Shown piece by piece: positions 336 to 38,382 of a DNA stretch of 42,294 bases. A program made the translations under genes and the position numbers. The notes under the pieces are model-generated. The model had not been told where the DNA came from. It did not search any database and saw nothing but the letters and a program-made list of their open reading frames with translations. Within the stretch, counting starts at the first letter, position 1. Each line of letters starts with the position of its first letter. This DNA is from an uncultured Alcaligenaceae bacterium (lineage in GTDB: Bacteria > Pseudomonadota > Gammaproteobacteria > Burkholderiales > JACQAP01): the NCBI GenBank assembly GCA_964650365.1, contig CAZYTR010000207.1, positions 1-42,294 of the forward strand, given 5' to 3'.

Positions 336-1763
336 ATGCAAACCAAACTGCTCATTGACGGGCAACTGGTCGCCGGCGCCGGCGCCGAATTCACAGTGCT
401 CAACCCGGCCAGCGGTGAAGCGATTACGAAGATCCGCGAAGCCTCGCCGGACCAGGTCAACCAGGCGGTGGAGGCGGCCGGTAAGGCGTTCAGAAGCTGG
501 GGCAACACCTCGCCACAGGAAAGATCACTGCTGTTGCTGAAGCTTGCCGATCGAATCGAGCAGGACGCCAAGAGCTACGCCGATCTCGAGTCGCTCAACT
601 GCGGCAAGCCCAGGGCGCGCGCTCTGGGCGACGAGATGCCGGCGATCGTGGACTGCTTCCGTTATTTTGCCGGCGCGGCGCGGTGCCTGCACGGCAGTGC
701 CACCGACGAGTATCTCGCCAACCACACCAGCATGATCCGCCGCGACCCCGTCGGCGTGGTGGCGCAGATAACGCCGTGGAATTACCCGCTGATGATGGCG
801 GCGTGGAAAATCGCGCCGGCCCTGGCCGCCGGCAATACCGTGGTGCTCAAGCCCTCGGAAATGACGCCGCTCACCACGCTCAAACTCGGCGAGCTGCTGG
901 CCGAAATCTTTCCGAAAGGCGTGATCAACATCGTCAACGGCCGCGGCGACACGGTCGGTTCACCGCTGATCAACCACGCGGGCGTGCGCATGATCTCGGT
1001 GACCGGCAGCATCGTCACCGGACGCAAGGTGCTGCAAGCGGCGCAGGCTACGCTCAAGCGTACCCATCTCGAATTGGGCGGCAAGGCGCCGGTGATCGTG
1101 TTCGACGACGCCGATCTGGAAGCGGTGGTCGGCGGGCTGCGCACCTTTGGCTTCTACAACGCCGGGCAGGACTGCACCGCTGCGTGCCGCATCTACGCCG
1201 GCGCGAAAATCTACGACAAGCTGGTCGCCGACCTCGGCGCGGCAGTCAAGACCATCAAGTTCGGCCAGCCCGAGAAGGAAGACTCCGAAATCGGGCCGCT
1301 TATCAGTGCCGGCCAGCGGGAGCGCGTGGCTGGCTTCGTAGAGCGTGCGATCGCCACCAGGCACATGGAAGTGGTCGCCGGTGGCGCGGTTGCGGCGGGC
1401 AAGGGTTTTTTCTATCAGCCCACCGTGGTGGCGGGCGCCCTTCAGGACGACGAAATCGTGCGCAAGGAAGTGTTCGGCCCGGTGGTGTCGGTAACGCGCT
1501 TCAAGGATGCCGACGAGGCGATCGCCTGGGCCAACGACTCGGAGTACGGCCTCGCCTCATCGGTGTGGACCCGGGACGTGAGCCGCGCGATGAAAGTAGC
1601 GAGCCGGCTGGAGTACGGCTGCACCTGGATCAACACCCACTTCATGCTGGTGAACGAAATGCCACACGGCGGGACGAAGATGTCCGGCTACGGCAAGGAC
1701 ATGTCCATGTACGGGCTGGAGGATTACACGATTACCCGTCACGTCATGGTCAACTTCGGCTGA
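336..1763 (+). CDS. patD: NAD-dependent aldehyde dehydrogenase, gamma-aminobutyraldehyde dehydrogenase-like (PatD/YdcW)
   Basis: The 475-aa product is colinear, from memory, with E. coli PatD. Shared stretches include [73 protein letters not shown] and [11 protein letters not shown]. An AAGGAG Shine-Dalgarno (SD) motif lies 7 nt upstream of the ATG. Confidence 0.85.
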
Positions 1764-1787: not shown

Positions 1788-1966
1788 CAACGCAGAGGCG
1801 CAGAGAACGCAGAGGGCGCAGAGAAACCAAGAACTGTGAAAATGATCGATATTCGACAATGCGACACGATGGCGCGAAACGTGCAATCGAGGTCTTGGTT
1901 CCACCTGCCCACGAATTTCGTCCTGATTTCCTCTGCGCCCTCTGCGTTCTCTGCGTCTCGGCGTTG
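1788..1966. repeat. Composite hairpin element E1: purine-rich tandem-unit arm (GCAGAGR units), 100-nt centre, complementary pyrimidine-rich arm
   Basis: The left arm is 1788-1826 (CAACGCAGAGGCGCAGAGAACGCAGAGGGCGCAGAGAAA). The reverse complement of the right arm, 1927-1966, is CAACGCCGAGACGCAGAGAACGCAGAGGGCGCAGAGGAAA. The two arms share a perfect 25-nt run. Confidence 0.9.
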
Positions 1967-2007: not shown

Positions 2008-3786
<1,779 letters not shown>

Positions 3787-8651: not shown

Positions 8652-9182
8652 TCAGGGCGCAGGCATGCGCGAGGAGTGATGCGAGACGATCATCCATCGG
8701 CCGTCGCGCTGGTAAAACACGAAAGTAAAGCGCAGCGGCGTGATGATTTCCTGTCCCTCCTGAACGCTGTGTGAAGTGTAGTAACCCGAGTTGATTGCGG
8801 TATCGCCGTACACCCTGACGTGCTGTTCGCCGATGGCCATGCGCAGATTGGGGCGCCTTGTAGTGGAGTCGGTGAAGTATTCCAGCACCGCATCGGGTGT
8901 GGTGCGGATGGTCGGGGAAATCGTTCCCCAGAACACCGCGTCGTCCGAATAGAGTGCCGCGATCCGCTGCGCGTCCCGGGTGTTGAAGGCCTCGGCCCAG
9001 GCCGTCGTTGCCGCGATGATCTCCTTTTGCACCGCGTCATCATCCGCGAGCGCCACGGAGCCCGTCAGCAAAAGAAACATAGTGGCGAGCAGGCGAAACA
9101 TGGTTGAAGCCGCGACGAATCCTTTGTGCCGTGTGCGGCCTGCTGCGTGCAGGGGAAGAGCGTTATTCCTTGCATTCCGCAT
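8652..9182 (-). CDS. Exported SnoaL-like / NTF2-fold (DUF4440-type) protein
   Basis: The pattern A.AFN.RD...IAALYSDDAVFWGT ... RFTFV..Q.DG.W.IV.HHSS is typical of NTF2-like DUF4440 proteins. The start is ambiguous. ATG 9182 has AAGGAAGG 7 nt upstream, whereas ATG 9101 gives a clean Sec signal, MFRLLATMFLLLTGSVALA. Confidence 0.55.
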   Translation of the reverse strand: MRNARNNALPLHAAGRTRHKGFVAASTMFRLLATMFLLLTGSVALADDDAVQKEIIAATTAWAEAFNTRDAQRIAALYSDDAVFWGTISPTIRTTPDAVLEYFTDSTTRRPNLRMAIGEQHVRVYGDTAINSGYYTSHSVQEGQEIITPLRFTFVFYQRDGRWMIVSHHSSRMPAP

Positions 9183-9240
9183 TCTTATTCCTTCCTTCGT
9201 GTTCCTTTCTTCTACCTTCGTGACCCTTCGTGTTGAAAGC
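9178..9240. repeat. Half copy (right-arm type) of the composite hairpin element, E5-like
   Basis: ATTCTTATTCCTTCCTTCGTGTTCC...CTTCGTGACCCTTCGTGTTGAAAG resembles the E5 right end GGAATTCTTACC..CCTTCCTTCGCGTTCC...CTTTGCGGTGAAGAAG. I saw no complementary purine-rich arm within 150 nt on either side. Confidence 0.6.
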
Positions 9241-9266: not shown

Positions 9267-12023
9267 TCAGTGCGCTTTCTCCCAATTAGGGCCGGCACCG
9301 ACATCCACAACCAGCGGCACATCGAGTCTTGCGACGTTTCCCATCAGCTTCGGCAGTTCCTTTTTTACCGATTCGAGTTCGCCCTCCGGCACTTCGAGCA
9401 CCAGTTCGTCGTGCACCTGCATGATCAGCCGGCTGCCGATCGCAGATGTCGCGATCCAGTCGTGCACGGCGATCATCGCCAGCTTGATTAGGTCGGCCGC
9501 GGTGCCCTGCATCGGCGCGTTGATCGCCGCGCGTTCGGCGCCCTGGCGGCGCGCGCCGTTCCCGCTTCTGATCTCGGGCAGGTAAAGCCGGCGGCCGAAC
9601 ACGGTCTCGACGTAACCGAGCTCGCGCGCCGTCTCGCGGGTGCGCTCCATGTATTCCTTCACGCCCGGGTAGCGCTGGAAGTAGCGCTCCATGTATTGCT
9701 GCGCGGCGCTGCGTTCGATGCCGAGCTGCGAGGCCAGCCCGAACGCGGACATGCCGTAGATCAGGCCGAAGTTGATTACCTTGGCGTAGCGGCGCTGCTC
9801 GCTGGTCACGGGCGCCGACTCGATACCGAATATTTCCGACGCGGTATGGCGATGCACGTCCTCGCCGGCGGCGAAGGCCTTGAGCAGGCTCTTGTCCTGC
9901 GACAGGTGAGCCATGATGCGCAGTTCGATCTGCGAATAATCTGCCGATACGAGTACGGATCCTTGCGGCGCGATGAAGGCTTCACGGATGCGGCGGCCCT
10001 CGGCGGTGCGCACCGGGATGTTCTGCAGGTTCGGATCGTTGCTCGCCAGCCGCCCGGTCACCGCCACCGCCTGCGCGTAATTGGTATGCACACGTCCCGT
10101 CGCCGGATTCACCATCTTCGGCAGCTTGTCGGTGTAGGTGGACTTCAGTTTGGCGAGTCCCCGGTACTCGAGGATCAGCTTCGGCAGCGGATGGTCGAGC
10201 GCGAGTTCCTGCAAGACGTCCTCGTCGGTGGAAGGCTGGCCTCCCGGCGTTTTCTTCTTGACCGGCAGGCCTTTGCGCTCGAACAGGATCTCCTGGAGCT
10301 GCTTGGGCGAATTGAGATTGAAGGGTTGCCCGGCCTCCCGGTGTACCTTGTTCTCCAGTTCGATCATCTTTTCGCCGAGTTCGCGGCTCTGCTGCTCCAG
10401 CAGCGCGGAGTCGAGCAGCACGCCCTGGCGCTCCATCGCAAACAGGACTTCCAGCACCGGCATTTCGATGCCGCGGTAGACGCGATCCAGTTTCTCGTCG
10501 CGCTCGATCTGTGGATACAGCGCCCGGTGCAGTTGCAACGTCACGTCCGCGTCTTCGCCCGAGTACTCGGTGGCGCGCTCCACGCCGACTTGTTCGAAGG
10601 GAATGCGGCTCGCGCCCTTGCCGGTCACTTCGTCGTAGCTGATGGTTGTGATGCCCAGGTGCCGGGCCGCGAGGCTATCCATGTCGTGCGCCTGGTGGCT
10701 TTCCAGTACGTAGGACTGCAACAGCGTGTCGTGCTCGATGCCAGACAGCAATACGCCGTGATTGGCGAACACGTGCTTGTCGTACTTCAGGTTCTGACCG
10801 ACCTTCCGATGCTTCGGACTCTGCATCCAATCCTTCAGCAGTGCGAGCACCGTATCCAGTGCAAGCTGCTCCGGCGCGCCGGCGTAGTTGTGCCCGACCG
10901 GTATATACGCGGCGTGATGGGGCTCGACCGAAAGCGAGATGCCGACCAGTCGTGCGGTCATGGGGTCGAGTCCGGTGGTTTCGGTGTCGATCGAGGCGAG
11001 TTCGGCGGTTTCGATGCGGGAGAGCCAAGTCTTGAGGTCGTGCTCCGTAAGTACGGTCTGGTAGTTGCGTTCAGGTGAGGCGTGAGGGGTGAGGGGTGGG
11101 GGGTGAGGGGTGAGGCGTGAGGGGTGAGGCGATGAAGCCGGAGACTCGGTTTCACCTTGCGCCTCGTGCCCCGTGCCTCGTGCCTGAAGCTCCTTCAACC
11201 AGGTCTTGAATTCGAGGCGATCGAAGAGAACCGTTAGTTTCGCCGTGTCCTGCGGCTGTGGGGTGAGATCCTCGAGCTTCACCGGCAGCTCGACGTCGCA
11301 CTTGATGGTGAGGAGTTTCCTTGCCTGTGGCAGCCAGTCCAGCGACTTGCGCAGGTTCTCGCCGACCACACCGGAGACTTCGTTGGCGTGGGCGACCACC
11401 TGGTCCAGCGTCCCGTACTGCTTCAACCATTTCACTGCCGTCTTTGGCCCGACCTTCTCCACGCCCGGCACGTTGTCCACGCTGTCGCCGACCAGTGTGA
11501 GATAGTCAACCATCTGTTCCGGCCTGACGCCGAACTTCTCTTCGACGCCCTTTTCGTCGAGGTTCTCGTTGGACATGGTGTTCACCAGCCTGACCGTCGG
11601 GTTGACCAGTTGAGTGATGTCCTTGTCGCCGGTGGATATGACGGTGTGCACGCCCCTGGCCTCGGCCTGCTTTGCCAGCGTGCCGATGACGTCGTCGGCT
11701 TCGACCCCCTCGACCATCAGCAGCGGCCAACCCAGCGCGCGCACACTCTGGTGCAGAGGTTCGATCTGGGCGACCAGCTCCTCCGGCATGGGCGGGCGGT
11801 TGGCCTTGTATTCGGTGTACCAGTCGTCGCGGAAGGTCTTTCCTTTTGCGTCGAATACGCAAGCGATATAATCCGCCGCAGTTTCCTTACGCAGCCGGCG
11901 CAGCATGTTGAGCACGCCGTACACGGCGCCGGTCGGTTCGTTGTTCCTGTTGCGCAGGTCGGGAAGCGCGTGGAATGCGCGGTAAAGGTAGGAAGAACCG
12001 TCGACCAGCAAGAGCGTTTTCAT
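9267..12023 (-). CDS. polA: DNA polymerase I (5'-3' nuclease, 3'-5' exonuclease and polymerase domains)
   Basis: The 918-aa product starts with LLLVDGSSYLYRAFHA (5' nuclease). It has DTETT (exo I), the polymerase motif A DYSQIELR, motif B RR.AK.INFG.IYG and motif C QVHDEL. Confidence 0.95.
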   Translation of the reverse strand: MKTLLLVDGSSYLYRAFHALPDLRNRNNEPTGAVYGVLNMLRRLRKETAADYIACVFDAKGKTFRDDWYTEYKANRPPMPEELVAQIEPLHQSVRALGWPLLMVEGVEADDVIGTLAKQAEARGVHTVISTGDKDITQLVNPTVRLVNTMSNENLDEKGVEEKFGVRPEQMVDYLTLVGDSVDNVPGVEKVGPKTAVKWLKQYGTLDQVVAHANEVSGVVGENLRKSLDWLPQARKLLTIKCDVELPVKLEDLTPQPQDTAKLTVLFDRLEFKTWLKELQARGTGHEAQGETESPASSPHPSRLTPHPPPLTPHASPERNYQTVLTEHDLKTWLSRIETAELASIDTETTGLDPMTARLVGISLSVEPHHAAYIPVGHNYAGAPEQLALDTVLALLKDWMQSPKHRKVGQNLKYDKHVFANHGVLLSGIEHDTLLQSYVLESHQAHDMDSLAARHLGITTISYDEVTGKGASRIPFEQVGVERATEYSGEDADVTLQLHRALYPQIERDEKLDRVYRGIEMPVLEVLFAMERQGVLLDSALLEQQSRELGEKMIELENKVHREAGQPFNLNSPKQLQEILFERKGLPVKKKTPGGQPSTDEDVLQELALDHPLPKLILEYRGLAKLKSTYTDKLPKMVNPATGRVHTNYAQAVAVTGRLASNDPNLQNIPVRTAEGRRIREAFIAPQGSVLVSADYSQIELRIMAHLSQDKSLLKAFAAGEDVHRHTASEIFGIESAPVTSEQRRYAKVINFGLIYGMSAFGLASQLGIERSAAQQYMERYFQRYPGVKEYMERTRETARELGYVETVFGRRLYLPEIRSGNGARRQGAERAAINAPMQGTAADLIKLAMIAVHDWIATSAIGSRLIMQVHDELVLEVPEGELESVKKELPKLMGNVARLDVPLVVDVGAGPNWEKAH
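11075..11188. repeat. Tandem-unit arrays of the hairpin-element type inside the polA coding sequence (interdomain linker)
   Basis: Eight contiguous heptamers GTGAGGS/GTGGGGG occupy 11075-11130. After 30 nt come GCCTCGT, GCCCCGT, GCCTCGT and GCCTGAA at 11161-11188. These are the same unit types as the arms of E3 and E4. Confidence 0.85.
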
Positions 12024-14508: not shown

Positions 14509-16695
14509 TTACGCGGGAACAAGTTTGGCGTAGTCGAGCGCGAGCCACTTGAGTCCCGCGTCGCGGAAGTTGACCTGGACCCGCGCGTCCGAGCCGCGGC
14601 CTTCGGCGTTGACGATCACCCCGGCGCCGAACTTCGGATGCACCACGTTCTGACCGATGCGCCAGCCTGATGGGCCGGTCTCGACCTTCGGCGCCGTGGT
14701 GTCGAAACCGGCTTCATATCCCCTGGAGGCGACGAAGCCCGAGAACTTCGTGGTGTTGATCCGTTTAAGCAACTCGTCGGGAATCTCATCTAAAAAGCGC
14801 GAGGGCACGTTGTAGCGGGTCTGGCCGTGCAGCATGCGCGTCTGCGCGTGAGTGAGGTAAAGCCTGCAGCGTGCGCGGGTGAGCGCGACGTACATCAGGC
14901 GCCGTTCCTCTTCCAGGCCGTCCTGCTCCGACAAGCTGTTTTCGTGCGGGAACAAACCTTCCTCCAGGCCGCTGATGAACACCGTGTGAAACTCCAAACC
15001 CTTGGCCGAGTGCACGGTCATCAGTTGCAATGCGTCCGCACCCTCACCCGCCTGGTGCTCGCCGGCTTCGAGCGCAGCGTGCGCCAGGAACGCGTTCAGA
15101 GGGTTCAGACCTTCCGACCTGATCTCGCCCTCCGGGCTTATCAACGTGATCGGGCCGCCCTCACCGACGAACGCCGTCGCCGCGTTGGTCAGTTCATTGA
15201 GGTTCTCGATCCGGTCCGCGCCCTCCTTCTCGGTCTGGTAGTGCGCGATCAGACCGCTGCTTGCAACCACGTGCTCGACGATCTCGGGCAGCGGCAGGTT
15301 CTCGCACGCTTTGCGCATCGTCTCGATCAACTGGATGAACGCGGCGATGCTGGTGCCGGCCTTGCCGCCCAGCGTATTGGTGCAGGCGGCCTGCCACAGC
15401 GAGATACCGCGCCCTGCGGCGGCATCCTGCAGTTGCTCGAGACTGCGGTTGCCGATTCCGCGCGTCGGGAAGTTGACCACCCTCAGGAAAGCGCCGTCAT
15501 CGTCCGGATTCGCAGAAAGGCGCAGGTAGGCGAGTGCGTGCTTGATCTCCTGGCGCTCGAAAAAGCGCAGTCCCCCGTACACGCGATAGGAGATCCCGGC
15601 ATTGAACAGCGCATGCTCGAGCACGCGCGACTGCGCGTTCGAGCGGTACAGCAGCGCCATGTCGGACAGCGCCACGCCCCCGTTGTGAAGTTGGCGCACC
15701 TCGTCGAGGATGTAGGCAGCTTCCTCGACGTCGGTCATCGCCTGGTAAATGCGAAGCGGCTCGCCGCTTCCTTCCGAGGTCCACAGGTTCTTGCCCAGCC
15801 GGGAGCGGTTGTGGCGGATCAGCGCGTTGGCTGCATCGAGGATGTTGCCGTGGCTGCGGTAGTTCTGCTCGAGCTTGATGACTTTCTCGATACCGAAGTC
15901 CTTCTCCAGATCGAGCATGTTGCCGGCGTGCGCCCCGCGAAACCTGTATATGGACTGGTCGTCGTCTCCCACCCCAAAGATAGTGTTGTTCGGACCCGCC
16001 AGCAATTTCAGCCACTGGTACTGCAGCCGGTTGGTGTCCTGGAATTCGTCCACCAGGATATGCTTGAAGCGGCCGCGGTAATGATCCCGCAGCAGCTCGT
16101 TGCGGCCCAGCAGTTCGTAACAGCGCAGCAGCAGTTCGGCGAAATCCACCACACCTTCGCGATTGCACTGCGCCTCGTAGGCTTCGTAGACCGTCAGCAG
16201 CCGGCGCGAGAAATCGTCGGGCGCTTCCGTTTGCGCTGCCCGCGAACCCCGCTCTTTGGCTGCGTTGATGAAATTCTGCGCCTGCCGCGGGGGGTACTTT
16301 TCGTCGTCCACGTTCATTGCCTTCATCACCCGCTTGATTACCGCCAGCTGATCGCCGGAGTCAAGGATCTGAAAGGTCTGCGGCAATGCGGCGTCGCGGT
16401 GGTGCGCGCGCAGGATGCGGTTGCACAGTCCATGGAAAGTGCCGACCCACATGCCGCGGGTCTTGATCGGCAACATCGCCGAAATGCGGGTGAGCATTTC
16501 GCGCGCGGCCTTATTGGTGAAGGTCACCGCCAGGATACTCAGCGGCCCGATCTGGCCGGTCTGAATCAGCCAGGCGATGCGAGTGGTGAGTACGCGAGTC
16601 TTTCCCGAGCCGGCACCGGCAAGGATCAGCGCGGACTGGTGCGGGAGCGTGACGGCTTCGAGCTGCTGGGGATTCAGGCCTTCGAGAATCGACAT
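14509..16695 (-). CDS. uvrD: DNA helicase II (UvrD; superfamily 1A helicase)
   Basis: The 728-aa product has LNPQQLEAV, Walker A AGAGSGKTRVLT, motif II ILVDEFQDTN, motif VI VALTRA and the C-terminal V.H..FG.G.I Tudor-like tail. Confidence 0.9.
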   Translation of the reverse strand: MSILEGLNPQQLEAVTLPHQSALILAGAGSGKTRVLTTRIAWLIQTGQIGPLSILAVTFTNKAAREMLTRISAMLPIKTRGMWVGTFHGLCNRILRAHHRDAALPQTFQILDSGDQLAVIKRVMKAMNVDDEKYPPRQAQNFINAAKERGSRAAQTEAPDDFSRRLLTVYEAYEAQCNREGVVDFAELLLRCYELLGRNELLRDHYRGRFKHILVDEFQDTNRLQYQWLKLLAGPNNTIFGVGDDDQSIYRFRGAHAGNMLDLEKDFGIEKVIKLEQNYRSHGNILDAANALIRHNRSRLGKNLWTSEGSGEPLRIYQAMTDVEEAAYILDEVRQLHNGGVALSDMALLYRSNAQSRVLEHALFNAGISYRVYGGLRFFERQEIKHALAYLRLSANPDDDGAFLRVVNFPTRGIGNRSLEQLQDAAAGRGISLWQAACTNTLGGKAGTSIAAFIQLIETMRKACENLPLPEIVEHVVASSGLIAHYQTEKEGADRIENLNELTNAATAFVGEGGPITLISPEGEIRSEGLNPLNAFLAHAALEAGEHQAGEGADALQLMTVHSAKGLEFHTVFISGLEEGLFPHENSLSEQDGLEEERRLMYVALTRARCRLYLTHAQTRMLHGQTRYNVPSRFLDEIPDELLKRINTTKFSGFVASRGYEAGFDTTAPKVETGPSGWRIGQNVVHPKFGAGVIVNAEGRGSDARVQVNFRDAGLKWLALDYAKLVPA

Positions 16696-19426: not shown

Positions 19427-19587
19427 GGCAGGATCGAGGATCGGGGATTGAGGATTCAAACTAAAGTCCTCGTGAAAACGGAAAATCTGAATGAAGGCTA
19501 CCAATTTGAGCGATCTTGCCGGTGTTCATTCATTGCGCGATCCTTTATGGGGATTTCACTCAATCCTCTATCCTCAGTCCTCAATCC
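19427..19587. repeat. Composite hairpin element E2 (units GGATYGA / TCRATCC)
   Basis: The left arm, 19427-19457, reads GGCAGGA TCGAGGA TCGGGGA TTGAGGA TTC. The right arm, 19560-19587, reads TCAATCC TCTATCC TCAGTCC TCAATCC. The arms are imperfectly complementary and the centre is about 100 nt. Confidence 0.85.
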
Positions 19588-19598
19588 CAATCATCGCG

Positions 19599-25363: not shown

Positions 25364-26791
25364 TTATCCCAATCTTTTCTTCAGTATCTCGTTGACCTGG
25401 GCGGGATTGGCCTTGCCCTTGGTGGCTTTCATCACCTGGCCCACCAGCGAGTTGAAGGCCTTCTCCTTCCCGCTCCTGTAATCCGCAACCTGCTGCGGGT
25501 TGGCGGCAAGCACTTCGTCCACGATCTTCCCGATCGCGCCCGAGTCGGAAATCTGCTTCAGGCCCCGGCGCTCGATGATCTCGTCGGCGCCGCCTTCTCC
25601 AGCCCACATCGCGTCGAATATTTCCTTGGCAATCTTGCCGGAGATGGTGCCGTCGGCAATTCGCGCCAAAAGGCCGGCCAGCGCGTCGGGTGCAATCGGT
25701 GCCTGCGAAACATCCAGGCCCACTTTGTTGAGCCGCGCGGACAATTCACCCATGACCCAGTTGGCGCAGAGTTTGGGGTCATTGGGCAGCCTTGCCAGAA
25801 TGCGCTCGAAGTAATCCGCGATTTCACGGCTGGAGGTGAGCGCCGCCGCATCGTATGGCGTAAGGCCAAATTCGCGCGGGTAGCGCTCGCGCTTGGATTG
25901 CGGCAGTTCGGTCAGCCCCGATTTCACTTCATCGATCCAGGACTCGCTTACCTCCAGCGGCAACAAATCGGGGTCGGGGAAGTAGCGGTAGTCGTGCGCA
26001 TCTTCCTTGGAGCGCATGGCACGCGTCTCGCCCGTATCCGGATCGAACAGGACCGTCGCCTGTTCGATGCGCCCGCCGTCTTCCAGCGTCTCGATCTGCC
26101 ACTTAGCTTCGTATTCGATCGCCTGCTGCAGGAAGCGGAAGGAATTCAGATTCTTGATCTCGCGGCGCGTGCCCAGCGGCGCGCCCGGGCGGCGCACCGA
26201 AACGTTGGCGTCGCAGCGAAAAGACCCTTCCTGCATGTTGCCGTCGCAGCTGTCTATCCAGCGCACCAGCGCATGCAGCGCCCTGGCATAGGCGAGCGCC
26301 TCTTCCGCAGAGCGCATATCCGGCTCCGTAACGATTTCCAGCAGCGGCGTGCCGGCGCGATTCAGGTCTATTCCGGTCATCCCGTGGAAGTCCTCGTGCA
26401 AAGACTTGCCGGCGTCTTCCTCGAGATGGGCACGGGTCAGGCGCACGACTTTTTCGCCGTCCTTCAGGTGGATGGCAAGGCTGCCGCCCTGCACGATGGG
26501 AATTTCGTACTGGCTGATCTGGTAGCCCTTGGGGAGGTCGGGGTAGAAGTAGTTCTTGCGCGCGAATATCGAGCGGCGATTGATGGTGCCGCCGACCGCC
26601 AGCCCGAAACGGATCGCCCGCTCCACCGCGCCCTTGTTGAGCACCGGCAACGTGCCTGGCATCGCCATGTCGATCGCGCAAGCCTGGGTATTGGGCACCG
26701 CGCCAAACGCAGTTGATGCCCCCGAGAATATCTTCGAGCGCGTCGACAGCTGCGCGTGGGTCTCGATGCCTATGACGATTTCCCATTCCAT
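25364..26791 (-). CDS. gatB: Asp-tRNA(Asn)/Glu-tRNA(Gln) amidotransferase subunit B
   Basis: The 475-aa product starts MEWE.VIG.E.H.QL.T.SKIF, has NRAG.PL.EIV.EPD and ends in a YqeY-like tail. Confidence 0.95.
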
Positions 26792-26805: not shown

Positions 26806-26854
26806 GTGAGGCGTGAGGCGTGAGGCGTGAGGCGAGAGGCGTGAGGCGAGAGGC
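26806..26854. repeat. Solo tandem heptamer array (GTGAGGC x5 interleaved with GAGAGGC x2) in the gatA-gatB spacer
   Basis: Seven contiguous 7-nt units were counted directly. The unit is the same as in the arms of element E3 and in the polA internal array. I found no complementary arm nearby. Confidence 0.9.
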
Positions 26855-26864
26855 GTTCATTGTT

Positions 26865-28316
26865 CTAAATCCCCGGGGGCAGCCGCTTGTGCCAGTCGGT
26901 CGCCTGCTGGTAGCGGTGCGCGGCACCGAGCAGCCTGGCTTCCTCGAAATAATTCGCCATCAACTGCAGGCCGACCGGGCGGTTCTTCGCACCGAAGCCG
27001 CAGGGAATGCTCATCCCCGGAATGCCGGCGAGGCTGCCGGGGATGGTGTACAGGTCCGACAGGTACATCGCCACCGGATCGGCGGCCTTCTCGCCGAAAC
27101 CGAACGCCACGCTGGTGGTGACCGGCCCGGCGATCAGATCGCAATCTCGGAAGGCGCGCTGGAACTCGTCGGCGATGATCCGGCGCACCTTCTGCGCCTG
27201 GATGTAGTACGCGTCGTAGTAGCCATGCGACAGCACGTAGGTGCCGATCAGGATGCGGCGTTTGGGTTCCGGACCGAAACCTTCCGAGCGCGACTTCTTC
27301 ATCATGTCGATAAGGTCGGCGTAGTGCGCTGCGCGGTGGCCGTAGCGCACACCGTCAAAGCGGCTCAGGTTCGAGGAACATTCCGCCGGGGCGATCACGT
27401 AATAGACCGGGATGCCGAGCGCTGCGTTCGGAAGCGAGATGTCCACCAGCTTCGCGCCGAGTTTGACGTACTCGGCTAGCGCCTCCCGCACTGCCCTTTG
27501 AACGTCGGCCTGCAGACCCTCGCCGAAAAACTCCCTCGGCACGCCGATGCGCAGGCCCTTGAGGTCGAGGCCGAGGGAGCGGGTGTAGTCCTCAGGAGCG
27601 CGCTCGACGCTGGTCGAATCCTTCGGATCGAAACCGAGCATGGCGTTGAAAATCAGTGCCGCATCCTCGGCCGAACGGGTCATGATGCCTGCCTGGTCCA
27701 GGCTGGAGGCGAACGCGATCATGCCCCAGCGCGAGGCGCGGCCGTAGGTTGGCTTGATGCCGGTAATGCCCGAAAACGCCGCCGGCTCGCGAATGGATCC
27801 GCCGGTGTCGGTAGCCGTTGCTGCCGGGGTGATTCTCGCTGCGACCGCCGCCGCCGAACCACCCGAGCTTCCGCCCGGTACCGCGGAGTTGTCCCAGGGG
27901 TTGAGCACGTTGCCGTAATGGCTGTTCTCGTTGGACGAGCCCATCGCGAACTCGTCGCAGTTGAGCTTACCGAGCGCGACCATCCCGGCGTCCGCCAGTC
28001 TTTCCACGACCGTGGCATCGAACGGGCTCATGTAGCCTTTGAGCATCCGCGACGAGGCGGTCGAAGGGAAATCGCGTGTCACGAAGATGTCCTTGTGTGC
28101 GATCGGCACGCCCGTCAGCGGCGTCGCGTCGCCTTTGGCTATGCGCGCGTCGGCCGCGCGCGCCTGAGCCAGCGTGACTTCCGGACGTACGTCCAGAAAG
28201 GCGTTGAGGTTCCTGTGGCTTTCGATGCGTTCGAGGAAAAGCCGGGCAAGTTCAACGGCGGAAACTTCCCTGGCAATCAGCGCGCGGCCCAGCTCGGCCA
28301 CCGACTTTTGGAACAT
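26865..28316 (-). CDS. gatA: Asp-tRNA(Asn)/Glu-tRNA(Gln) amidotransferase subunit A
   Basis: The 483-aa product carries the amidase signature [13 protein letters not shown]...DTGGSIR.PA and the KD.F motif typical of GatA. Confidence 0.95.
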
Positions 28317-29832: not shown

Positions 29833-29978
29833 GGAGGTGAGGCGTTAGGCGTGAGGCGAAGAAAGCCTAGCCCTGCAAGAAATTCCAGTTCTGTTGGGGC
29901 CTGCTACCATCTTTTCTACTGGTAATGCTGATTTTGCCCCTGACGTCCGTCGCCTCACGCCTATCGCCTTACGCCTCC
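29833..29978. repeat. Composite hairpin element E3 (units GTGAGGC / GCCTCAC) filling the mreB-mreC spacer
   Basis: The left arm, 29833-29858, is GGAGGTGAGGCGTTAGGCGTGAGGCG. The reverse complement of the right arm, 29951-29978, is GGAGGCGTAAGGCGATAGGCGTGAGGCG. The centre is 92 nt. Confidence 0.9.
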
Positions 29979-29990
29979 CCCTCATCCCTG

Positions 29991-30893
29991 ATGGAGTACA
30001 CCCCACAGCCGTTTTTCAAACGGGGCCCCAGCCTCCTTGCAAGACTGTCATTCTTCGCGCTGCTCTCCCTGATCCTGTTGTACGCCGACGCGCGCTTCCA
30101 CTACATGGAAGGGATGCGCAAGGCGGTTGGCGTGGTGCTCTATCCTCTGCAGAGAATTGTGGACGTGCCGGGAAAAGTCGCGTCCGGCATCGGCAGCTTC
30201 TTTGTCAGCCAATCCTACCTGCAACGGGAGAACGAGCGCCTCGGGCGCGAGAATTTCCTCAACGCCGGGTTATTGCAGACGCAGCAGGAACTGATCGCCG
30301 AGAATCGTCACCTGCGCGAGCTGCTGGACATGAAGGCTCGCGCCGGACAAACCTCGGTGGCGGCAGAGATCCTCTACTTCGGCCGCGATCCGTTCAGCCG
30401 CAAGGTGATCATCGATAAGGGCTCGTCGCACGATGTCGAGGAAGGCGCGGCCGTAATTGACGATACCGGCCTGATCGGTCAGGTGAGCCGGGCTTTTCCC
30501 TGGACCGCGGAAATCGCCCTGATCTCCGACCGCGAACAGATCGTCCCGGTCCAGGTGGTGAGAAACGGCCTGCGTGCCGCGGTTTTTGGCGCCGGCTATG
30601 ACGGCGCGCTGGACCTGCGCTTCATGCCGGTCAACGTCGACATAGAGAACGGTGACCTGCTGGTGACCTCCGGCATCGACGGCGTCTACCCGGCCGGACT
30701 GCCGGTGGCGATGGTTTCAAACATAGAGCGCAACGCCGCTTACCCTTTTGCGCGCATCACCTGTACTCCCGCCGCCGGCGTCAACCGCCACCGCCAGGTC
30801 CTGGTTCTCTCCAGGCTGGCGCCGCTGCCAGACTACCCTCCCCCGGCCCAGCAAAAGAAGGCCAAGCCGCGCAAGTCGCGGAGGGACGGATGA
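29991..30893 (+). CDS. mreC: Rod shape-determining protein MreC
   Basis: The track ORF starts at 29925, inside the repeat. The ATG at 29991 gives MEYTPQPFFKRGPSLLARL, a TM segment, then a coiled coil (LQRENERL..EN) and the beta-barrel region. Its position is between mreB and mreD. Confidence 0.85.
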   Translation: MEYTPQPFFKRGPSLLARLSFFALLSLILLYADARFHYMEGMRKAVGVVLYPLQRIVDVPGKVASGIGSFFVSQSYLQRENERLGRENFLNAGLLQTQQELIAENRHLRELLDMKARAGQTSVAAEILYFGRDPFSRKVIIDKGSSHDVEEGAAVIDDTGLIGQVSRAFPWTAEIALISDREQIVPVQVVRNGLRAAVFGAGYDGALDLRFMPVNVDIENGDLLVTSGIDGVYPAGLPVAMVSNIERNAAYPFARITCTPAAGVNRHRQVLVLSRLAPLPDYPPPAQQKKAKPRKSRRDG

Positions 30894-31423
30894 TGCGCGG
30901 CTCTGCTTTCAGCAACCTTTCGACCGGGGAGATCCTGCGCCCGATCAGACCGCTGTACGTTGCCCTGACCCTGGTTGCGGCGCTGTTGCTGAACCTGATG
31001 CCGCTCAGCGGCTGGGTGTTGGTGCTTCGCCCGGATTTCGTGGCCCTGACATTGCTGTACTGGGGAATCAACCAGCCGCGCAAGGTCGGGTTTTTCCCTG
31101 CCTGGCTGCTCGGCCTGGCAGTGGACGTGGCCGATGGCAGCCTGTTCGGGCAGCACGCTCTTGCCTACTCGGTGATGATGTTCAGCGCCATTGCATTGCA
31201 CAGGCGCGTGGCGATGTTCGGTGTGCGCCATCAGATGCTGCACGTGCTGGCGATCCTCCTGCTGATGCAAGCGATCGTGCTGGCGGTGCGGGCAGCGGCG
31301 GGCGGCGAGTATCCGGGTTGGTGGTATTTCATTCCCAGCGTAATCGGCGCGCTATTGTGGCCGGTAACCCGGTTTGTGTTCACGATCCCGCTGCGATCGA
31401 GGCGGGATCCGGACGAGATGTAA
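30890..31423 (+). CDS. mreD: Rod shape-determining protein MreD
   Basis: The 177-aa polytopic membrane protein overlaps mreC by ATGA and has the canonical operon position. Confidence 0.8.
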   Translation: MMRGSAFSNLSTGEILRPIRPLYVALTLVAALLLNLMPLSGWVLVLRPDFVALTLLYWGINQPRKVGFFPAWLLGLAVDVADGSLFGQHALAYSVMMFSAIALHRRVAMFGVRHQMLHVLAILLLMQAIVLAVRAAAGGEYPGWWYFIPSVIGALLWPVTRFVFTIPLRSRRDPDEM

Positions 31424-31467
31424 GGCGTCCACCTCACATGCGCCTGGCGACATTTCCCGGAACGACG

Positions 31468-33450
31468 ATGAACCGCACCGTCGAGCTTCGCGACCATCAA
31501 CGCGAGCTCTACAACTTCCAGCTGCGGCTGGCGATTGCCGGCGGCGCCGTTCTGTTCGCCTTCTTTGTCCTGTTCATGCGCTTTTTCTACGTGCAGGTGA
31601 TCCAGCACGACTATTACCACACGCTGGCCGAGCAGAACCGCATTTTCATCGTCCCGGTTGTGCCCAACCGCGGGTTGATCGTGGATCGCAACGGCGTGGT
31701 GCTGGCACATAACTTTGCCGCTTATACCCTTGAGATCATGCCCACACATGTGGACGACTTCGAGGACATGATCAACAGGCTGTCGATACTGGTAGATATC
31801 ACACCCAAGGACCGCAAACGATTCCAGAAACTGCTCGAGGAAGGCCACGACTTCGCCAGCGTGCCGATCCGCACCCGCCTGAACGACGAGGAGGTGGCGC
31901 GTTTCGCGGTCAACGCACACCGTTTTCCCGGAGTGGAACTGAACGCGCGGCTGTTCCGGCACTACCCCAACGGCGAGATTGCCTCGCATGTGGTCGGCTA
32001 CATCGGCCGGATCAGCGATCCGGACGTGGCGGATCTGAAAAGCAAGGGGAGGGCGGCGAATTACAGTGCCTCGGATTATATCGGCAAGGTCGGACTCGAG
32101 CAGCGTTACGAGAAAGACCTGCGCGGGGTGACCGGCTATGAACATGTGGAGACTGACGCCAACGGCCGGTCGGTGCGCACGCTGCGCAGCACCCTGCCGG
32201 TGTCCGGCAACGATCTGCGGCTGGCACTGGATGCGCGGCTGCAGCAGGTGGCGGAGCAGGTGTTTGGCAGCCATCGCGGTTCGCTGGTGGCGATCGATCC
32301 CGCCACCGGTGGCGTGCTGGCGCTGGTCTCCAAACCGGGTTTCGACCCCAATCTTTTCGTCGAGGGCATCGATCCGCAGAATTGGGAGGCACTGAACAAT
32401 TCGCCCGACCATCCGCTCAATAATCGCGCGTTGCAGGGCATGTATCCGCCGGGCTCGACCTTCAAGCCATTCATGGCGCTGGCCGGGCTCGAATTGGGAA
32501 AGCGCAAACCCGGATTTACCATCAGTGATCCGGGTTATTTCGTGCTCGGCGGCAGTGGCCACATCTTCCGTGACTGGAAGACCGGCGGCCACGGCATCGT
32601 CAACCTGCATAAGGCGGTCGTCGTGTCCTGCGATACTTATTTCTACGGCCTGGCGCACGAACTCGGCATTGATGCCATCAACGAATTCATCGGCCGGTTC
32701 GGCCTTGGCAAGAAGACCGGCATCGACATCGAGGGCGAGGTGGCCGGATTGTTGCCCTCGCAGGAGTGGAAGCAGCGGCGCTTCCGGCAGAAATGGTTTG
32801 TCGGCGACACCATCTCGGTGGGCATCGGCCAGGGTTACAACCTGACCACGCCGTTGCAGCTTGCGATGGCCACGGCGGTTCTGGCCAACAACGGGCGCAT
32901 TTTCCGCCCGCACCTGGTCCAGCACATACAGGACAGCCAAACTGGCGGGTTGACCAGCATAGAGCCGCAGCCGATCGGCGAAGTGGAACTGAAGCCCGAG
33001 AACGTCAAGCGCGTGCGCGATGCGATGGTGGACGTGATGAAACCGGGCGGAACCGCCGCCTGGGCAGGCATGGGAGCGAAGTACCTTTTTGCCGGTAAGA
33101 CCGGCACTGCACAGGTGATCGGAATGAAGGGGCAGAAGTACGACGAGGATCGCATTCAAGCGCGTCATCGCGACCATGCGCTATTCATCGGCTACGCTCC
33201 GGCAGACGATCCCAGGATCGCGCTGGCAGTGCTGGTGGAAAACGGCGGCCACGGCAGCAGCACCGCCGCGCCGATCGCGCGCCAGGTGATCGACTTCTAT
33301 CTGCTGGGCAAGGAGCCGCAGTTGGTCAAACCGACGGCCAAGAAACCGGCGCAAGAACCGGCCCAGGAAACGGTCCCTGAACTGGCGCCGGAACAGCAGC
33401 AGGCGCTGGAACGGGTGCTGGCGCCGGACCCGGAGCAGGAAGGTGATTAA
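31468..33450 (+). CDS. mrdA: Penicillin-binding protein 2 (peptidoglycan D,D-transpeptidase MrdA)
   Basis: MNRTVELRDHQRE...F.LR aligns with the E. coli PBP2 N-terminus. It has the SxxK motif STFK, the SxN motif SCD and KTGTAQV. The alternative ATG at 31438 adds 10 codons. The 900-aa track ORF is an upstream read-through artefact. Confidence 0.9.
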   Translation: MNRTVELRDHQRELYNFQLRLAIAGGAVLFAFFVLFMRFFYVQVIQHDYYHTLAEQNRIFIVPVVPNRGLIVDRNGVVLAHNFAAYTLEIMPTHVDDFEDMINRLSILVDITPKDRKRFQKLLEEGHDFASVPIRTRLNDEEVARFAVNAHRFPGVELNARLFRHYPNGEIASHVVGYIGRISDPDVADLKSKGRAANYSASDYIGKVGLEQRYEKDLRGVTGYEHVETDANGRSVRTLRSTLPVSGNDLRLALDARLQQVAEQVFGSHRGSLVAIDPATGGVLALVSKPGFDPNLFVEGIDPQNWEALNNSPDHPLNNRALQGMYPPGSTFKPFMALAGLELGKRKPGFTISDPGYFVLGGSGHIFRDWKTGGHGIVNLHKAVVVSCDTYFYGLAHELGIDAINEFIGRFGLGKKTGIDIEGEVAGLLPSQEWKQRRFRQKWFVGDTISVGIGQGYNLTTPLQLAMATAVLANNGRIFRPHLVQHIQDSQTGGLTSIEPQPIGEVELKPENVKRVRDAMVDVMKPGGTAAWAGMGAKYLFAGKTGTAQVIGMKGQKYDEDRIQARHRDHALFIGYAPADDPRIALAVLVENGGHGSSTAAPIARQVIDFYLLGKEPQLVKPTAKKPAQEPAQETVPELAPEQQQALERVLAPDPEQEGD

Positions 33451-34537
33451 CCGTCTGTACGCCTACCTGGTCAAGCACCTCGATCGCTATCTGCTGACGC
33501 TGGTGGCCATCTTGCTGGTGATGGGCTTGTTGATCCTGTACAGCGCCGCGGGGGCGAGCCTCGAGCGCGTGGCGGCGCAAATGGCCAACATCGGCGTTGC
33601 GCTGGTGTTGATGTGGATCGCTGCCAACGTGCCCTTGCATTATCTTTCCCGCATTGCCCTGCCGCTGTACGTCCTCGGTCTGGCGCTGTTGATCGCGGTG
33701 GCCGCGTTCGGCGAGATTGTCAACGGTGCGCGACGCTGGCTCGACCTGGGATTCACCCGCATACAGCCTTCTGAGTTGATGAAAATCGCGGTGCCGTTGA
33801 TGCTGGCCTGGTACTTCGATCGCTATGAGGCGGTGCTCAAGATGCGCGACTTCGCTGTCGGGGCGCTGCTGGTGCTGGTGCCGGTGCTGCTGATCGTGCA
33901 GCAGCCCGACCTCGGCACAGCGCTGCTGGTGACCGCGGCCGGGTTCTTCGTGCTGTTTCTCGGCGGGTTGTCGTGGAAAATCCTGGTGGGCCTGACGTTG
34001 GCAGGCGGGGCGAGCCTTCCGTTCCTGTGGCCGATGCTGCACGACTACCAGCGCCAGCGGGTGCTGACGCTGCTCGATCCCTCGCAGGACCCGCTGGGTT
34101 CGGGCTATCACACCATCCAGTCCACCATCGCGCTGGGTTCCGGCGGAGTCTTCGGCAAAGGCTGGCTCAACGGCACCCAGTCGCATCTCGACTTTCTGCC
34201 GGAGCGCACCACCGACTTCATTTTCGCGGTGTACGCGGAAGAGTTCGGCCTCTTCGGCAACCTGGTGCTGATGGTATTGTTCCTGCTGGTCGTCGGCCGC
34301 GGGCTGGTGATCGCAGCCAACGCCCCGACACTGTTCACCCGGCTGCTCGCCGGCGCGATCACGCTGACCTTCTTCACTTACGCCATCGTCAACATGGGGA
34401 TGGTGAGCGGAATCCTGCCGGTGGTCGGCGTTCCGCTGCCGCTGATCAGTTATGGCGGCACCTCGCTGGTGACGATACTATTCAGCGTCGGTTTGCTGAT
34501 GAGCATCCATACGCATCGAAGGCTTGTTCAAACCTAG
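33443..34537 (+). CDS. rodA: Peptidoglycan glycosyltransferase RodA (SEDS family)
   Basis: The 364-aa product has about 10 TM helices. It has QPSELMK, DLG.ALL, DFIF....EE.G..G and PLP..SYGG.S. The GTG start overlaps the mrdA stop by 8 nt. Confidence 0.9.
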   Translation: MINRLYAYLVKHLDRYLLTLVAILLVMGLLILYSAAGASLERVAAQMANIGVALVLMWIAANVPLHYLSRIALPLYVLGLALLIAVAAFGEIVNGARRWLDLGFTRIQPSELMKIAVPLMLAWYFDRYEAVLKMRDFAVGALLVLVPVLLIVQQPDLGTALLVTAAGFFVLFLGGLSWKILVGLTLAGGASLPFLWPMLHDYQRQRVLTLLDPSQDPLGSGYHTIQSTIALGSGGVFGKGWLNGTQSHLDFLPERTTDFIFAVYAEEFGLFGNLVLMVLFLLVVGRGLVIAANAPTLFTRLLAGAITLTFFTYAIVNMGMVSGILPVVGVPLPLISYGGTSLVTILFSVGLLMSIHTHRRLVQT

Positions 34538-34680
34538 GCACGAGGCACGAGGTATGAGGTGCGAGGTCCAAGAAGAAACAGGAGTGCGGCCTTTGACCTT
34601 TCACAAGTGTATGAATCGATCCAATGCCATCAAGACATAGAGTATTTACTCGTACCTCGGCCCTCGTACCTCGAGCCTCC
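34537..34680. repeat. Composite hairpin element E4 (units CACGAGG / CCTCGTA) filling the rodA-rlpA spacer
   Basis: The left arm, 34537-34569, is AGGCACGAGGCACGAGGTATGAGGTGCGAGGTCC. The reverse complement of the right arm, 34647-34680, is GGAGGCTCGAGGTACGAGGGCCGAGGTACGAGTA. About 23 of 31 positions are complementary by hand alignment. The centre is 77 nt. Confidence 0.85.
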
Positions 34681-36512: not shown

Positions 36513-37289
36513 ATGACCCGCCACGATCGACGACAGACCCCGATCCCGGTCCGCTTCTATCGTTCGACGCTTCTTCTGTTCCACCTCTTCGCCGGTATTG
36601 CCACCGTGGCCCTGTTGTTTCCTTTCTACGGAGGCGCGCGGCGCCGCCTCGCCGTGGCACGCTGGTCGGCGCGCATTCTGTCCGCAGTCAACGTCGAGCC
36701 GCGCCTGCGCGGTGTGCCTCCCACAGTCAAAGATCGTGCGGCAGTGCTGGTTGCGAATCACGTTTCCTGGCTCGACATCCCGCTGGTGCACTCGGTGTGG
36801 CAAGTGCGCTTCATCGCCAAGTCGGAAGTGCGCCGCTGGCCGTTGATCGGCTGGCTGTCGGCCAGGACCGGGACCTTGTTCATCCAGCGCGGAAAAAGCC
36901 GTCACGCCGCGCGCATCAATCAGGCGATCCACGCGGCATTTGTCGCCGGAGACGCGATCGGCGTGTTTCCCGAAGGCACGACCACAGACGGCGCCGGCCT
37001 GCAACCCTTCCACGCCTCTTTACTGCAACCTGCGGTGGACGAGCGCGCATTGGTGTTCCCGGTGGCGCTGCGATACCTGGACGAGGACGGCAGGGTGAAC
37101 GTCAACGCCAGCTATGTCGGGGACACCAGCCTGATCGAGTCCATGGCGATGATCCTGCGGGAACGCAAGATCGTGGCGGAGTTGATCTTCCTGCCGGCGA
37201 TCGATGCCGAAGGCAAGTCGCGGCGGGACCTTGCGCGCGATACATACGCGGAGATCAATGTCGCGCTTGGTCAGGGTTTCCCAGTTTAG
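36513..37289 (+). CDS. Lysophospholipid (1-acyl-sn-glycerol-3-phosphate-type) acyltransferase family protein
   Basis: It has an N-terminal TM segment. The HX4D catalytic motif is NHVSWLD and FPEGTTT is motif III of the PlsC family. Confidence 0.75.
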   Translation: MTRHDRRQTPIPVRFYRSTLLLFHLFAGIATVALLFPFYGGARRRLAVARWSARILSAVNVEPRLRGVPPTVKDRAAVLVANHVSWLDIPLVHSVWQVRFIAKSEVRRWPLIGWLSARTGTLFIQRGKSRHAARINQAIHAAFVAGDAIGVFPEGTTTDGAGLQPFHASLLQPAVDERALVFPVALRYLDEDGRVNVNASYVGDTSLIESMAMILRERKIVAELIFLPAIDAEGKSRRDLARDTYAEINVALGQGFPV

Positions 37290-38122: not shown

Positions 38123-38293
38123 CTTCACCGCAAAGACGCAAAGAGGAACACGCAAAGAAATGCGGAATTGAACAGAAATTCGATCCCGCGATTTGCAAAG
38201 GATACGGGAGCGCACCTGGAATTCTTACCCCAGTTTCCTGCCTTCCTTCGCGTTCCCTTTGCGCCTTCGCGCCTTCGCGCCTTTGCGGTGAAG
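38123..38293. repeat. Composite hairpin element E5 (8-nt units GCAAAGAC / GCGAAGGC) between the cytochrome c5 terminator and apaH
   Basis: The left arm, 38123-38158, is CTTCACCGCAAAGACGCAAAGAGGAACACGCAAAGA. The reverse complement of the right arm, 38241-38293, is CTTCACCGCAAAGGCGCGAAGGCGCGAAGGCGCAAAGGGAACGCGAAGGAAGG. The first 13 nt are identical. The right arm carries two extra units. Confidence 0.9.
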
Positions 38294-38305
38294 AAGCAAG
38301 CTTGA

Positions 38306-38334
38306 AACAAAAAAGGCGCAGCCTCTGCTGCGCC
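38306..38334 (-). terminator. Rho-independent terminator of the cytochrome c5 gene
   Basis: The minus strand reads GGCGCAGC AGAG GCTGCGCC TTTTTTGTTTC. That is an 8-bp GC stem, a 4-nt loop and a U-run, about 50 nt downstream of the stop at 38383. Confidence 0.8.
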
Positions 38335-38382
38335 CCATTTTCTGCCTTGCGATTTACCAATCCTCAATCCCCACTCACCGCC

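Follow-up and report, generated by a model that had tools for sequence, protein, structure and literature searches.

Inverted heptamer arrays in the interdomain tether of DNA polymerase I of soil Burkholderiales

Microsatellites whose repeat unit is not a multiple of three nucleotides are expected to be purged from essential genes. A 42,294-nucleotide stretch from an uncultured Alcaligenaceae bacterium (assembly GCA_964650365.1, contig CAZYTR010000207.1; the whole stretch is hereafter the window) carries two arrays of 7-nt units in frame within polA, the gene for DNA polymerase I (Pol I), and raises the question of what such arrays contribute to the enzyme and why they persist there. We argue that they are probably a coding-region copy of the inverted heptamer microsatellite of this clade, a case of tolerated churn in a tether that is constrained in length but free in sequence. 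Read directly from the plus strand, positions 11075-11130 hold eight contiguous heptamers (GTGAGGC, GTGAGGG twice, GTGGGGG, GTGAGGG, GTGAGGC, GTGAGGG, GTGAGGC), and positions 11161-11188 hold GCCTCGT, GCCCCGT, GCCTCGT and GCCTGAA. Tandem Repeats Finder (TRF) reports the first array at 11074-11129 (period 7, 8.0 copies, 87% matches, score 91) and the second at 11161-11185 (3.6 copies of the unit GCCTCGT, score 43), so that each has at least three head-to-tail units of a length not divisible by three. On the plus strand a purine array, 30 nt and then a pyrimidine array follow one another, giving the pair a convergent polarity. A first-pass annotation, made by a model from the letters alone, had described the eight heptamers and the second array, and both methods confirm them, except that the last of the four units it assigned to the second array (GCCTGAA) is a partial unit only.

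The arrays occupy a narrowly defined part of the protein. They encode residues 279-317, which form the sole Pfam-free stretch of PolA: domains are assigned to residues 3-260 (5' nuclease), 321-506 (3'-5' exonuclease) and 541-915 (polymerase), and none falls between 261 and 320. Structures of the E. coli Klenow fragment align from window PolA residue 317/320 onward, and residue 320 aligns with residue 6 of the E. coli Klenow chain. If the Klenow fragment starts at E. coli Pol I residue 324, as we assume, window residue 320 corresponds to E. coli residue 329, and the N-terminal part of the window's PolA is about 9 residues shorter than that of E. coli. An AlphaFold2 model built on a 49-sequence alignment has a mean predicted local distance difference test score (pLDDT) of 80.7 overall; in it residues 283-316 have a pLDDT below 50 and no secondary structure, residues 281-310 average 27-35, and the segment is preceded by a helix (273-283) and followed by a strand (320-323). 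Because the gap in Pfam coverage, the start of the Klenow alignment and the modelled disorder coincide, the arrays are predicted to encode a disordered tether and nothing else. The first-pass annotation had placed the array in the exact interval that separates the 5' nuclease domain from the 3'-5' exonuclease domain, which agrees with Pfam and the Klenow alignment, although its bounds for the interdomain segment (residues 281-318) differ slightly from those measured. Its linker of roughly E. coli length likewise fits the structural alignment, the disorder it raised for residues 281-318 is what the model predicts, and the 21-nt periodicity it described is present as a 7-residue repeat in the linker peptide (PHPSRLT / PHPPPLT / PHASPER), the 7-nt unit being read in all three frames. 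E. coli Pol I also has a protease-sensitive tether between the 5' nuclease and the Klenow fragment, and the window's tether resembles it in position and approximate length, with the array ending where Klenow structures begin; the E. coli linker is not known to consist of heptamer repeats.

Relatives show that this arrangement is widely shared. As the DNA of 164 related loci shows, many linkers consist of a purine heptamer array, a 13-51-nt spacer and a pyrimidine heptamer array, all at the same site, and a purine array, short spacer and pyrimidine array are also found at the polA linker site of some more distant betaproteobacteria. Across the 96 loci from which the linker could be extracted, self-identity of the linker DNA at a lag of 7 nt reaches 0.40 or more in 27, one of them the window (0.60-0.62), and stays below 0.35 in 59 others. 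An exact-match search with the window's PolA returned no record. Without exception, its nearest proteins (75-92% identity) are encoded in metagenome-assembled genomes or metagenomes of Burkholderiales from soil and groundwater, and the prevailing linker peptide in relatives follows the pattern ELEGR-GTRDEGRG-NETA...SSPHPSP-LAPRPS...R.YETILT. The polA linker array is thus not private to the window's genome, a point on which the first-pass annotation had proposed to align relatives; it is a clade-wide feature of soil Burkholderiales, with units that differ by lineage (Table 1). In L139, positions 3350-3465 hold four copies of AGTAAGG, then four of GTTCAGA, then one pyrimidine array, and L100 and L109 each hold one of the two purine types; the L139 linker looks like a snapshot of one array replacing another. 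L003 and L093 (PolA 81% identical) have a 19-residue linker with array vestiges only, and L004 has no array. The window's linker equals in length those of L001, L081, L082 and L083, and array-less relatives have linkers about 10-22 residues shorter, so that the earlier suggestion of linker sequence replaced by repeat units, rather than lengthened by them, holds for a tether built from arrays but not for replacement alone.

The linker appears to change by segmental replacement faster than by point mutation, because its two halves depart in opposite directions from the identity at 4-fold degenerate sites of flanking polA, which are 75-83% identical to close relatives (76-83% for the L001 group). 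The 5' half (residues 279-300) is 91-94% identical to L001, L081, L082 and L083 and 39% identical to L002 and L084; the 3' array (residues 301-318) is 54-69% identical to the former four and 78-80% identical to the latter two. The window's 5' arm is orthologous to the left arm of L001, L081, L082 and L083, and the 30-nt spacer is conserved with that group too. By homology this arm goes with a GCCTCGY right arm, as in L001, and the right arm now present is the CCTCAC variant of the L002 group. The nearest relative (92% PolA identity) has a 5'-arm unit different from the window's and the same 3' end. The window's linker is a mosaic.

The reading frame has wandered as well. In L088 the right arm and a 33-nt insert are read one frame off from the homologous DNA of L095 and L101, with the result that homologous DNA yields PSPLMGEDRNPAKSGAPRPS in L088 and PSPLVPYGQSPVSSEVGRPS in L101, and a 1-nt indel before the conserved YETIL restores the frame. 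The peptide sequence, therefore, is not what is conserved, and frame slips did occur in the past, each compensated inside the linker. All 98 relatives translated across the linker (80 metagenome loci, 14 genome loci and 4 nearest-relative loci) keep the frame. The nearest relative is represented by four independent assemblies whose polA sequences differ by 2-4 nt; their linkers are identical, with no variation in unit number, as far as assemblies, which show the consensus only and would hide rare variants, can tell. These results lend no support to the earlier idea that gain or loss of units would split Pol I by frameshift. The 33-nt insert itself (TATGGGCGAAGCCCGGTATCCAGCGAAGTCGGG, with the internal half-repeat GGCGAAGNCSGG) lies in the pyrimidine arm at 4078-4110 in L088, 1708-1740 in L095 and 444-476 in L101, and peptides of P0018, P0025, P0030, P0040, P0055 and P0095 suggest the same insert; no further copy outside polA was found in the window and the related DNA searched.

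The polA arrays belong to a larger population of inverted elements. Within the window, three-unit matches to GTGAGGS with at most 3 mismatches number 13, compared with 0.03 expected from dinucleotide shuffles, and lie in polA, at 26806-26854, at 29837 and at 29952, and three-unit matches to AGGCACG occur only on the polA minus strand and at 34536 (0 expected); the earlier claim that the linker is made of the unit types of intergenic elements stands well above chance. The AGGATCG unit type of the element at 19430-19592 also fills the polA linker of L006. The sister elements lie inside conserved gene pairs (leuS and the next open reading frame (ORF), gatA-gatB, mreB-mreC, rodA and the rlpA-like gene), and on either strand the intergenic elements fold into hairpins that are nearly perfect (-53 to -99 kcal/mol). 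In the window and related DNA, the purine-rich arm lies 5' of the pyrimidine-rich arm in 39 of 40 inverted pairs, an order that is the same on both strands and to which the polA copy conforms. All-against-all BLAST of the 40 element spacers found similarity only between orthologous elements; copies of a mobile element were considered as their source and rejected, the cores of different elements sharing no similarity.

When tandem repeats with 3 or more copies are counted over 1.76 Mb of related loci, period 7 far outnumbers every other period (108 arrays, compared with 31 of period 6 and 30 of period 9). Heptamer arrays outside the linker occur at 1.45 per 10 kb in loci with a periodic polA linker and at 0.40 per 10 kb in those without (3.6-fold; Fisher p = 0.009; Spearman rho 0.36, p = 3e-4), and three relatives without linker arrays (L003, L093, L004) have zero heptamer arrays in about 14 kb of flank. 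Relatives that kept the same linker but lacked the intergenic elements would have pointed to an independent origin, as the first-pass annotation had reasoned; the association found is the reverse of that.

Table 1. Inverted and single heptamer-type arrays in the window and in related loci. Coordinates of the uvrD arrays are those of the respective related locus.
Feature	Coordinates	Strand	Units	Product, context or basis
polA (DNA polymerase I, 918 aa; host gene)	9267..12023	minus		ORF, Pfam and E. coli Klenow structure alignment
polA 5' arm (polA sense), purine-rich	11161..11188	minus	AGGCACG / GGGCACG x3.6	residues 279-288, LQARGTGHEA
Core/spacer between polA arms	11131..11160	minus	30 nt	residues about 288-298, AQGETESPASS
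polA 3' arm (polA sense), pyrimidine-rich	11075..11130	minus	SCCTCAC x8	residues 298-317, SPHPSRLTPHPPPLTPHASP
Inverted element, 9-nt units	1789..1965	plus	AACGCAGAG x4, 105-nt core, CTCTGCGTT x4	between aldehyde dehydrogenase and ABC transporter genes; -97 / -99 kcal/mol
Inverted element	19430..19592	plus	AGGATCG x3.7, 103-nt core, CTCAATC x5	directly after leuS stop
Single arm	26806..26856	plus	GTGAGGC x7.3	between gatA (26865-28316, minus) and gatB (25364-26791, minus)
Inverted element	29837..29976	plus	GTGAGGC x3, 92-nt core, reverse-complement array	between mreB and mreC; hairpin -67 / -70 kcal/mol on the two strands
Inverted element	34536..34679	plus	AGGCACG / AGGTATG x4.6, 81-nt core, reverse-complement array	between rodA and rlpA-like gene
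L091 and nearest relative P0001 (L161), polA linker			5' arm GAGGGAC; 3' arm GTCCCTC	
L006, polA linker			5' arm AGGATCG; 3' arm CTCAATC	
L100, polA linker			5' arm AGTAAGG; 3' arm CCTTACT	
L109, polA linker			5' arm GTTCAGA; 3' arm CTCAAC	
L139, polA linker			5' arms AGTAAGG and GTTCAGA in tandem; 3' arm ACTCAAC-type	
L114, L141, L155, polA linker			one arm only; no 3' arm	
L009 uvrD array	2710-2792		AAGGCAG/CATCACT	
L010 uvrD array	535-611		TCAGCAT plus TCCCTCA	
L112 uvrD array	1547-1571		CTCATCC	

The predicted folding of the element differs between strands. The plus strand reaches -64.1 kcal/mol (z -4.3, 0 of 200 shuffles as good) and the polA-sense strand -38.5 kcal/mol (z -2.3, 2 of 200), which agrees with the first-pass observation that full pairing, by way of G-U pairs, is confined to the plus strand. 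In 24 of the 27 linkers the antisense strand is more stable than the sense strand, the mean difference being 9.5 kcal/mol, and sense mRNA hairpins of -70 to -85 kcal/mol are predicted in the linkers of L090, L091 and L101. Intergenic elements show no consistent strand asymmetry, and the base composition of their arms is exactly complementary (A 0.268 in the 5' arm vs T 0.272 in the 3' arm; G 0.432 vs C 0.434). In polA, T on the coding strand makes up 8% of the 5' arm vs 18% in intergenic elements, and 17% of the 3' arm vs 27%, and C is raised (59% vs 43%). Since a 7-nt unit is read in all frames, a T in it falls at codon position 2 once per 7 codons and gives a hydrophobic residue, and where two purines come after the T, one of the frames reads TGA, TAG or TAA; TGA is present in GTGAGGS, the sequence that would complement the window's right arm perfectly. 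Replacement of T by C on the coding strand would produce the A.C and C.A mismatches seen between the arms in sense orientation (145 times, with G.T and T.G at 71) and G.U pairs on the other strand. We infer that depletion of T on the coding strand explains the plus-strand pairing, and that the plus-strand RNA suggested by the first-pass annotation is not needed: the asymmetry fits the depletion, and intergenic elements have neither. An antisense RNA, the reading first prompted by the strand asymmetry, was dropped on these grounds.

Scanning of the surrounding DNA revealed neither promoter-like nor terminator-like sites tied to the element on either strand, and Rfam, searched with the whole window at the gathering threshold and with the region at E <= 1, returned only a transfer RNA at 39012 and a chance match to a long non-coding RNA. 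The plus strand at 11082-11116, the template strand of polA, contains a G-quadruplex-type sequence motif (G4-TGA-G4-T-G6-TGA-G4) with a unit different from GGGNATC. In L091 and similar relatives the (GAGGGAC)n arm of the sense strand places a G3-N4 x4 motif in the polA mRNA itself.

Native arm pairs fold better than between-lineage chimeras (-49.7 vs -44.1 kcal/mol per 100 nt; permutation p = 0.004), and the TRF consensus units of the two arms differ by transitions only in most lineages. Co-variation measured on consensus units is not significant (2.2 differences on average in matched pairs vs 2.7 in mismatched pairs), since a GAGG/CCTC-like core common to most lineages blurs the distinction between the two kinds of pair. 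Co-variation of the arms therefore appears modest.

The explanation we favor, that the array is a coding-region copy of the clade's heptamer microsatellite, would work as follows. Slippage inside each array would add, remove and homogenise units, and hairpin-templated copying or template switching between the arms would keep them roughly complementary. Selection at the protein level would require that the frame be back before about residue 319, that units be free of stops in all three frames, that a T-poor coding strand keep the peptide hydrophilic, and that the tether be long enough. The outcome would be a tether of ~38 residues in which Pro, Ser, Thr, His, Gly and Arg abound and whose sequence can churn freely, and the array would persist because the tether needs length, not sequence, and cannot simply be deleted. 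Under this explanation the nucleic acid structure most likely has no dedicated role in polA, and from it we infer that the array is neutral. Several observations sit uneasily with it. Periodicity kept at one site down to 75% PolA identity exceeds simple neutrality, and selection on the nucleic acid could be at work. Folding favors the antisense strand in 24 of 27 linkers, the plus strand bears the G-quadruplex-type motif, and the T-depletion account of the asymmetry is an argument rather than a proof. Neither slippage nor template switching was observed directly, and the four assemblies of the nearest relative are without unit-number variation. Finally, the window's own arms rank near the bottom in matching, with several chimeras more stable than the native pair and consensus units that differ at 3 of 7 positions.

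Function of the hairpin or G-quadruplex as such, either as a structured antisense (plus-strand) RNA or as an mRNA or template-strand structure that tunes polA transcription, translation pausing between modules or mRNA cleavage, is one alternative, and we regard it as unlikely. The stability of the plus strand and its G-quadruplex-type motif, the predominance of antisense folding, the sense hairpins of three relatives and the occupation of the site across a wide clade speak for it, as does the G-quadruplex formation in vitro of comparable heptamer arrays (PMC4692102). Against this, the promoter, terminator and Rfam searches are empty at the element, unit sequence, arm length and spacer vary between lineages, some relatives keep one arm only (L114, L141, L155) or have lost the array (L003/L093), and the strand asymmetry is matched by a T depletion absent from intergenic elements. 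That a mobile hairpin element, similar to a Rickettsia palindromic element (RPE) or a miniature inverted-repeat transposable element, was inserted in frame in an ancestral polA linker and has since decayed seems quite unlikely. The arm-spacer-arm layout, the sharing of units with intergenic arrays of the same genome, the presence or absence of the array among orthologues and the nested 33-nt insertion in the right arm of L088, L095 and L101 would all be expected of such an element; however, spacers are dissimilar within and between genomes except at orthologous sites, unit and copy number are individual to every element, a reading of the polA and window element sequences revealed no terminal inverted repeats beyond the arrays and no target-site duplication, and different units at the same polA site in different lineages fit turnover in situ better than a single insertion.

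A contingency locus, in which Pol I would toggle heritably and reversibly between full-length and 5'-nuclease-only forms as one or two units are added or lost, is suggested by eight near-identical units of a length not divisible by three, by the truncation that a slip would cause right after the 5' nuclease domain and by the frame slips of the past. We consider it most improbable, given that every one of the 98 relatives is in frame, that linkers are identical in the four nearest-relative assemblies, that the historical slips were all compensated within the linker and that the hosts are housekeeping repair genes rather than the surface or restriction genes typical of phase variation. Repeats are prone to mis-assembly, and yet an assembly or sequencing artefact is barely conceivable here: the 56-nt array is shorter than a typical read, the ORF is open, the linker has the length found in L001, L081, L082 and L083, and similar arrays occupy the polA site in dozens of independent assemblies.

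polA is not the sole host gene. In-frame heptamer arrays, single or as an inverted pair, also occur in uvrD of three relatives (L009, L010, L112; Table 1), in a loop within the Pfam UvrD_C region between ...SLWQAA.S.A and KGIPAFV..., and the window's own uvrD (14509-16695, minus) is without one. A more far-reaching idea, which we hold to be a long shot, is that the arrays in the polA tether and the uvrD loop are kept since their hairpin or G-quadruplex couples the expression or integrity of repair genes to the process that generates the arrays, which could be replication slippage, Okazaki-fragment processing, or RNase III or R-loop handling. If true, the cell would handle the two halves of the gene as though they were distinct cistrons with an "intergenic" element between them, and a self-referential regulatory or evolvability device would lie within a core replication enzyme.

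The element class itself has precedents. Arrays of GGGAATC and GGGGAYT heptamers in Xanthomonas and Nostoc have 2 to >20 copies and form about 70 pairs in convergent orientation, prefer the spacers that separate co-oriented ORFs, where a G-rich array closely follows stops and a C-rich array closely precedes starts, and form G-quadruplexes in vitro; copies inside genes make up 7-11% of those in Xanthomonas and roughly one third of those in Nostoc (Rehm et al., 2015; PMC4692102). An excess of long heptanucleotide simple sequence repeats (SSRs) in bacteria was described by Mrazek and co-workers (2007), and the genomes richest in 5-11-nt repeats include Burkholderia and Xanthomonas, as far as the summary in PMC4679880 relates. 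The arrays described here resemble those of Xanthomonas and Nostoc in their tandem 7-nt units, convergent pairs and, as a sequence motif, G-tracts that may be able to form a G-quadruplex, the pairing in the window being only partly complementary, and in lying mostly between co-oriented ORFs with an intragenic minority (PMC4692102). The sister elements share that type of location, intergenic with co-oriented ORFs on either side, whereas the polA copy is intragenic. Unlike those arrays, ours have different unit sequences that are not uniform within a genome, and the polA copy lies in frame in the middle of an essential conserved gene, forms the whole interdomain tether and occupies its site clade-wide with unit turnover. 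Neither polA nor uvrD is in the Xanthomonas and Nostoc supplementary lists (PMC4692102), and our literature search found nothing specific on heptamer arrays in polA or Pol I linkers. Intragenic heptamer repeats as such were already known from Xanthomonas and Nostoc, which narrows the possible novelty of the first-pass observation to the polA case. What appears to be new is an inverted heptamer array serving as the whole Pol I tether, kept clade-wide with unit turnover and frame wandering; the class of element is known. In Xanthomonas axonopodis pv. citri, GGGAATC repeats are listed at mreC and mreC-mreD (PMC4692102, supplementary file 6), and the window has a heptamer element between mreB and mreC, Xanthomonas being only distantly related.

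Three other systems offer partial parallels. The closest precedent for hairpin repeats in frame is, by analogy, that of the RPEs, which Ogata et al. in 2000 are said to have found inserted in frame in protein genes. RPEs follow one conserved consensus, about 100-150 bp long, and occur as dispersed copies of it. Like them, the polA array is a hairpin-capable repeat lying in frame in a housekeeping gene with the fold undisturbed and with presence varying among orthologues; unlike them, its arms consist of microsatellite arrays, units are individual to each element, spacers are unrelated and there is no shared consensus. SSR contingency loci have in common with it an intragenic unit that is not a multiple of three, such that a single-unit slip breaks the frame, but here no ON/OFF variants were seen among the 98 relatives, the host is a housekeeping gene and slips are compensated in the linker. 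In Borg elements, tandem repeats create intrinsically disordered regions (PMC9879509), and as in those and in Pro/Thr-rich interdomain linkers, a fast-evolving repeat here gives a low-complexity disordered peptide between modules; the Borg units, however, are multiples of three, and here a 7-nt unit is read in three frames with a 7-residue period and occurs as an inverted pair.

These linkers amount to a natural experiment on several levels. They bear on how little sequence constraint the Pol I tether has, the same DNA being used in different frames; how coding constraint reshapes a repeat, with stops avoided in three frames and T depleted on the coding strand; and how inverted heptamer arrays, which are widespread in bacteria, originate and turn over. 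On the practical side, such linkers will confound alignment, frameshift detection and variant calling when metagenome-assembled genomes are analysed.

Several smaller observations concern the remaining repeats. Inverted elements of 7-9-nt units are found in the window and in L006, L091, L098, L102, L105, L106, L116 and others, each with its own unit and an unrelated core of 10-121 nt. In the window's elements the pyrimidine arm, CCTC-rich and anti-Shine-Dalgarno-like, lies just upstream of the next start codon. On the mRNA strand of the gatA-gatB array this is a GCCTCAC array that stops ~15 nt upstream of the gatB ATG, and an obvious purine-rich ribosome-binding site is absent. A further inverted element of 8-9-nt units at 38129-38290 (CGCAAAGA x3, ~80 nt, CCTTCGCG / CCTTTGCG x5) sits between the ORFs at 37286-38098 (minus) and 38302-38997 (plus). 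Units of the ACGCAAAGG type, which resemble it, directly follow polA in L001 (8780-8814) and L091 (10380-10564). Between the window's polA stop and the next minus-strand ORF (8652-9182) lies a degenerate purine-rich 10-nt array at 9192-9234 (minus strand CACGAAGGNN x4). The window also has in-frame 18-nt tandem repeats of 2.5-2.6 copies at 16088-16132 in uvrD and at 33382-33428 near the C-terminus of a PBP2-like gene (30748-33450), both of the ordinary multiple-of-three kind, unlike the heptamer arrays.

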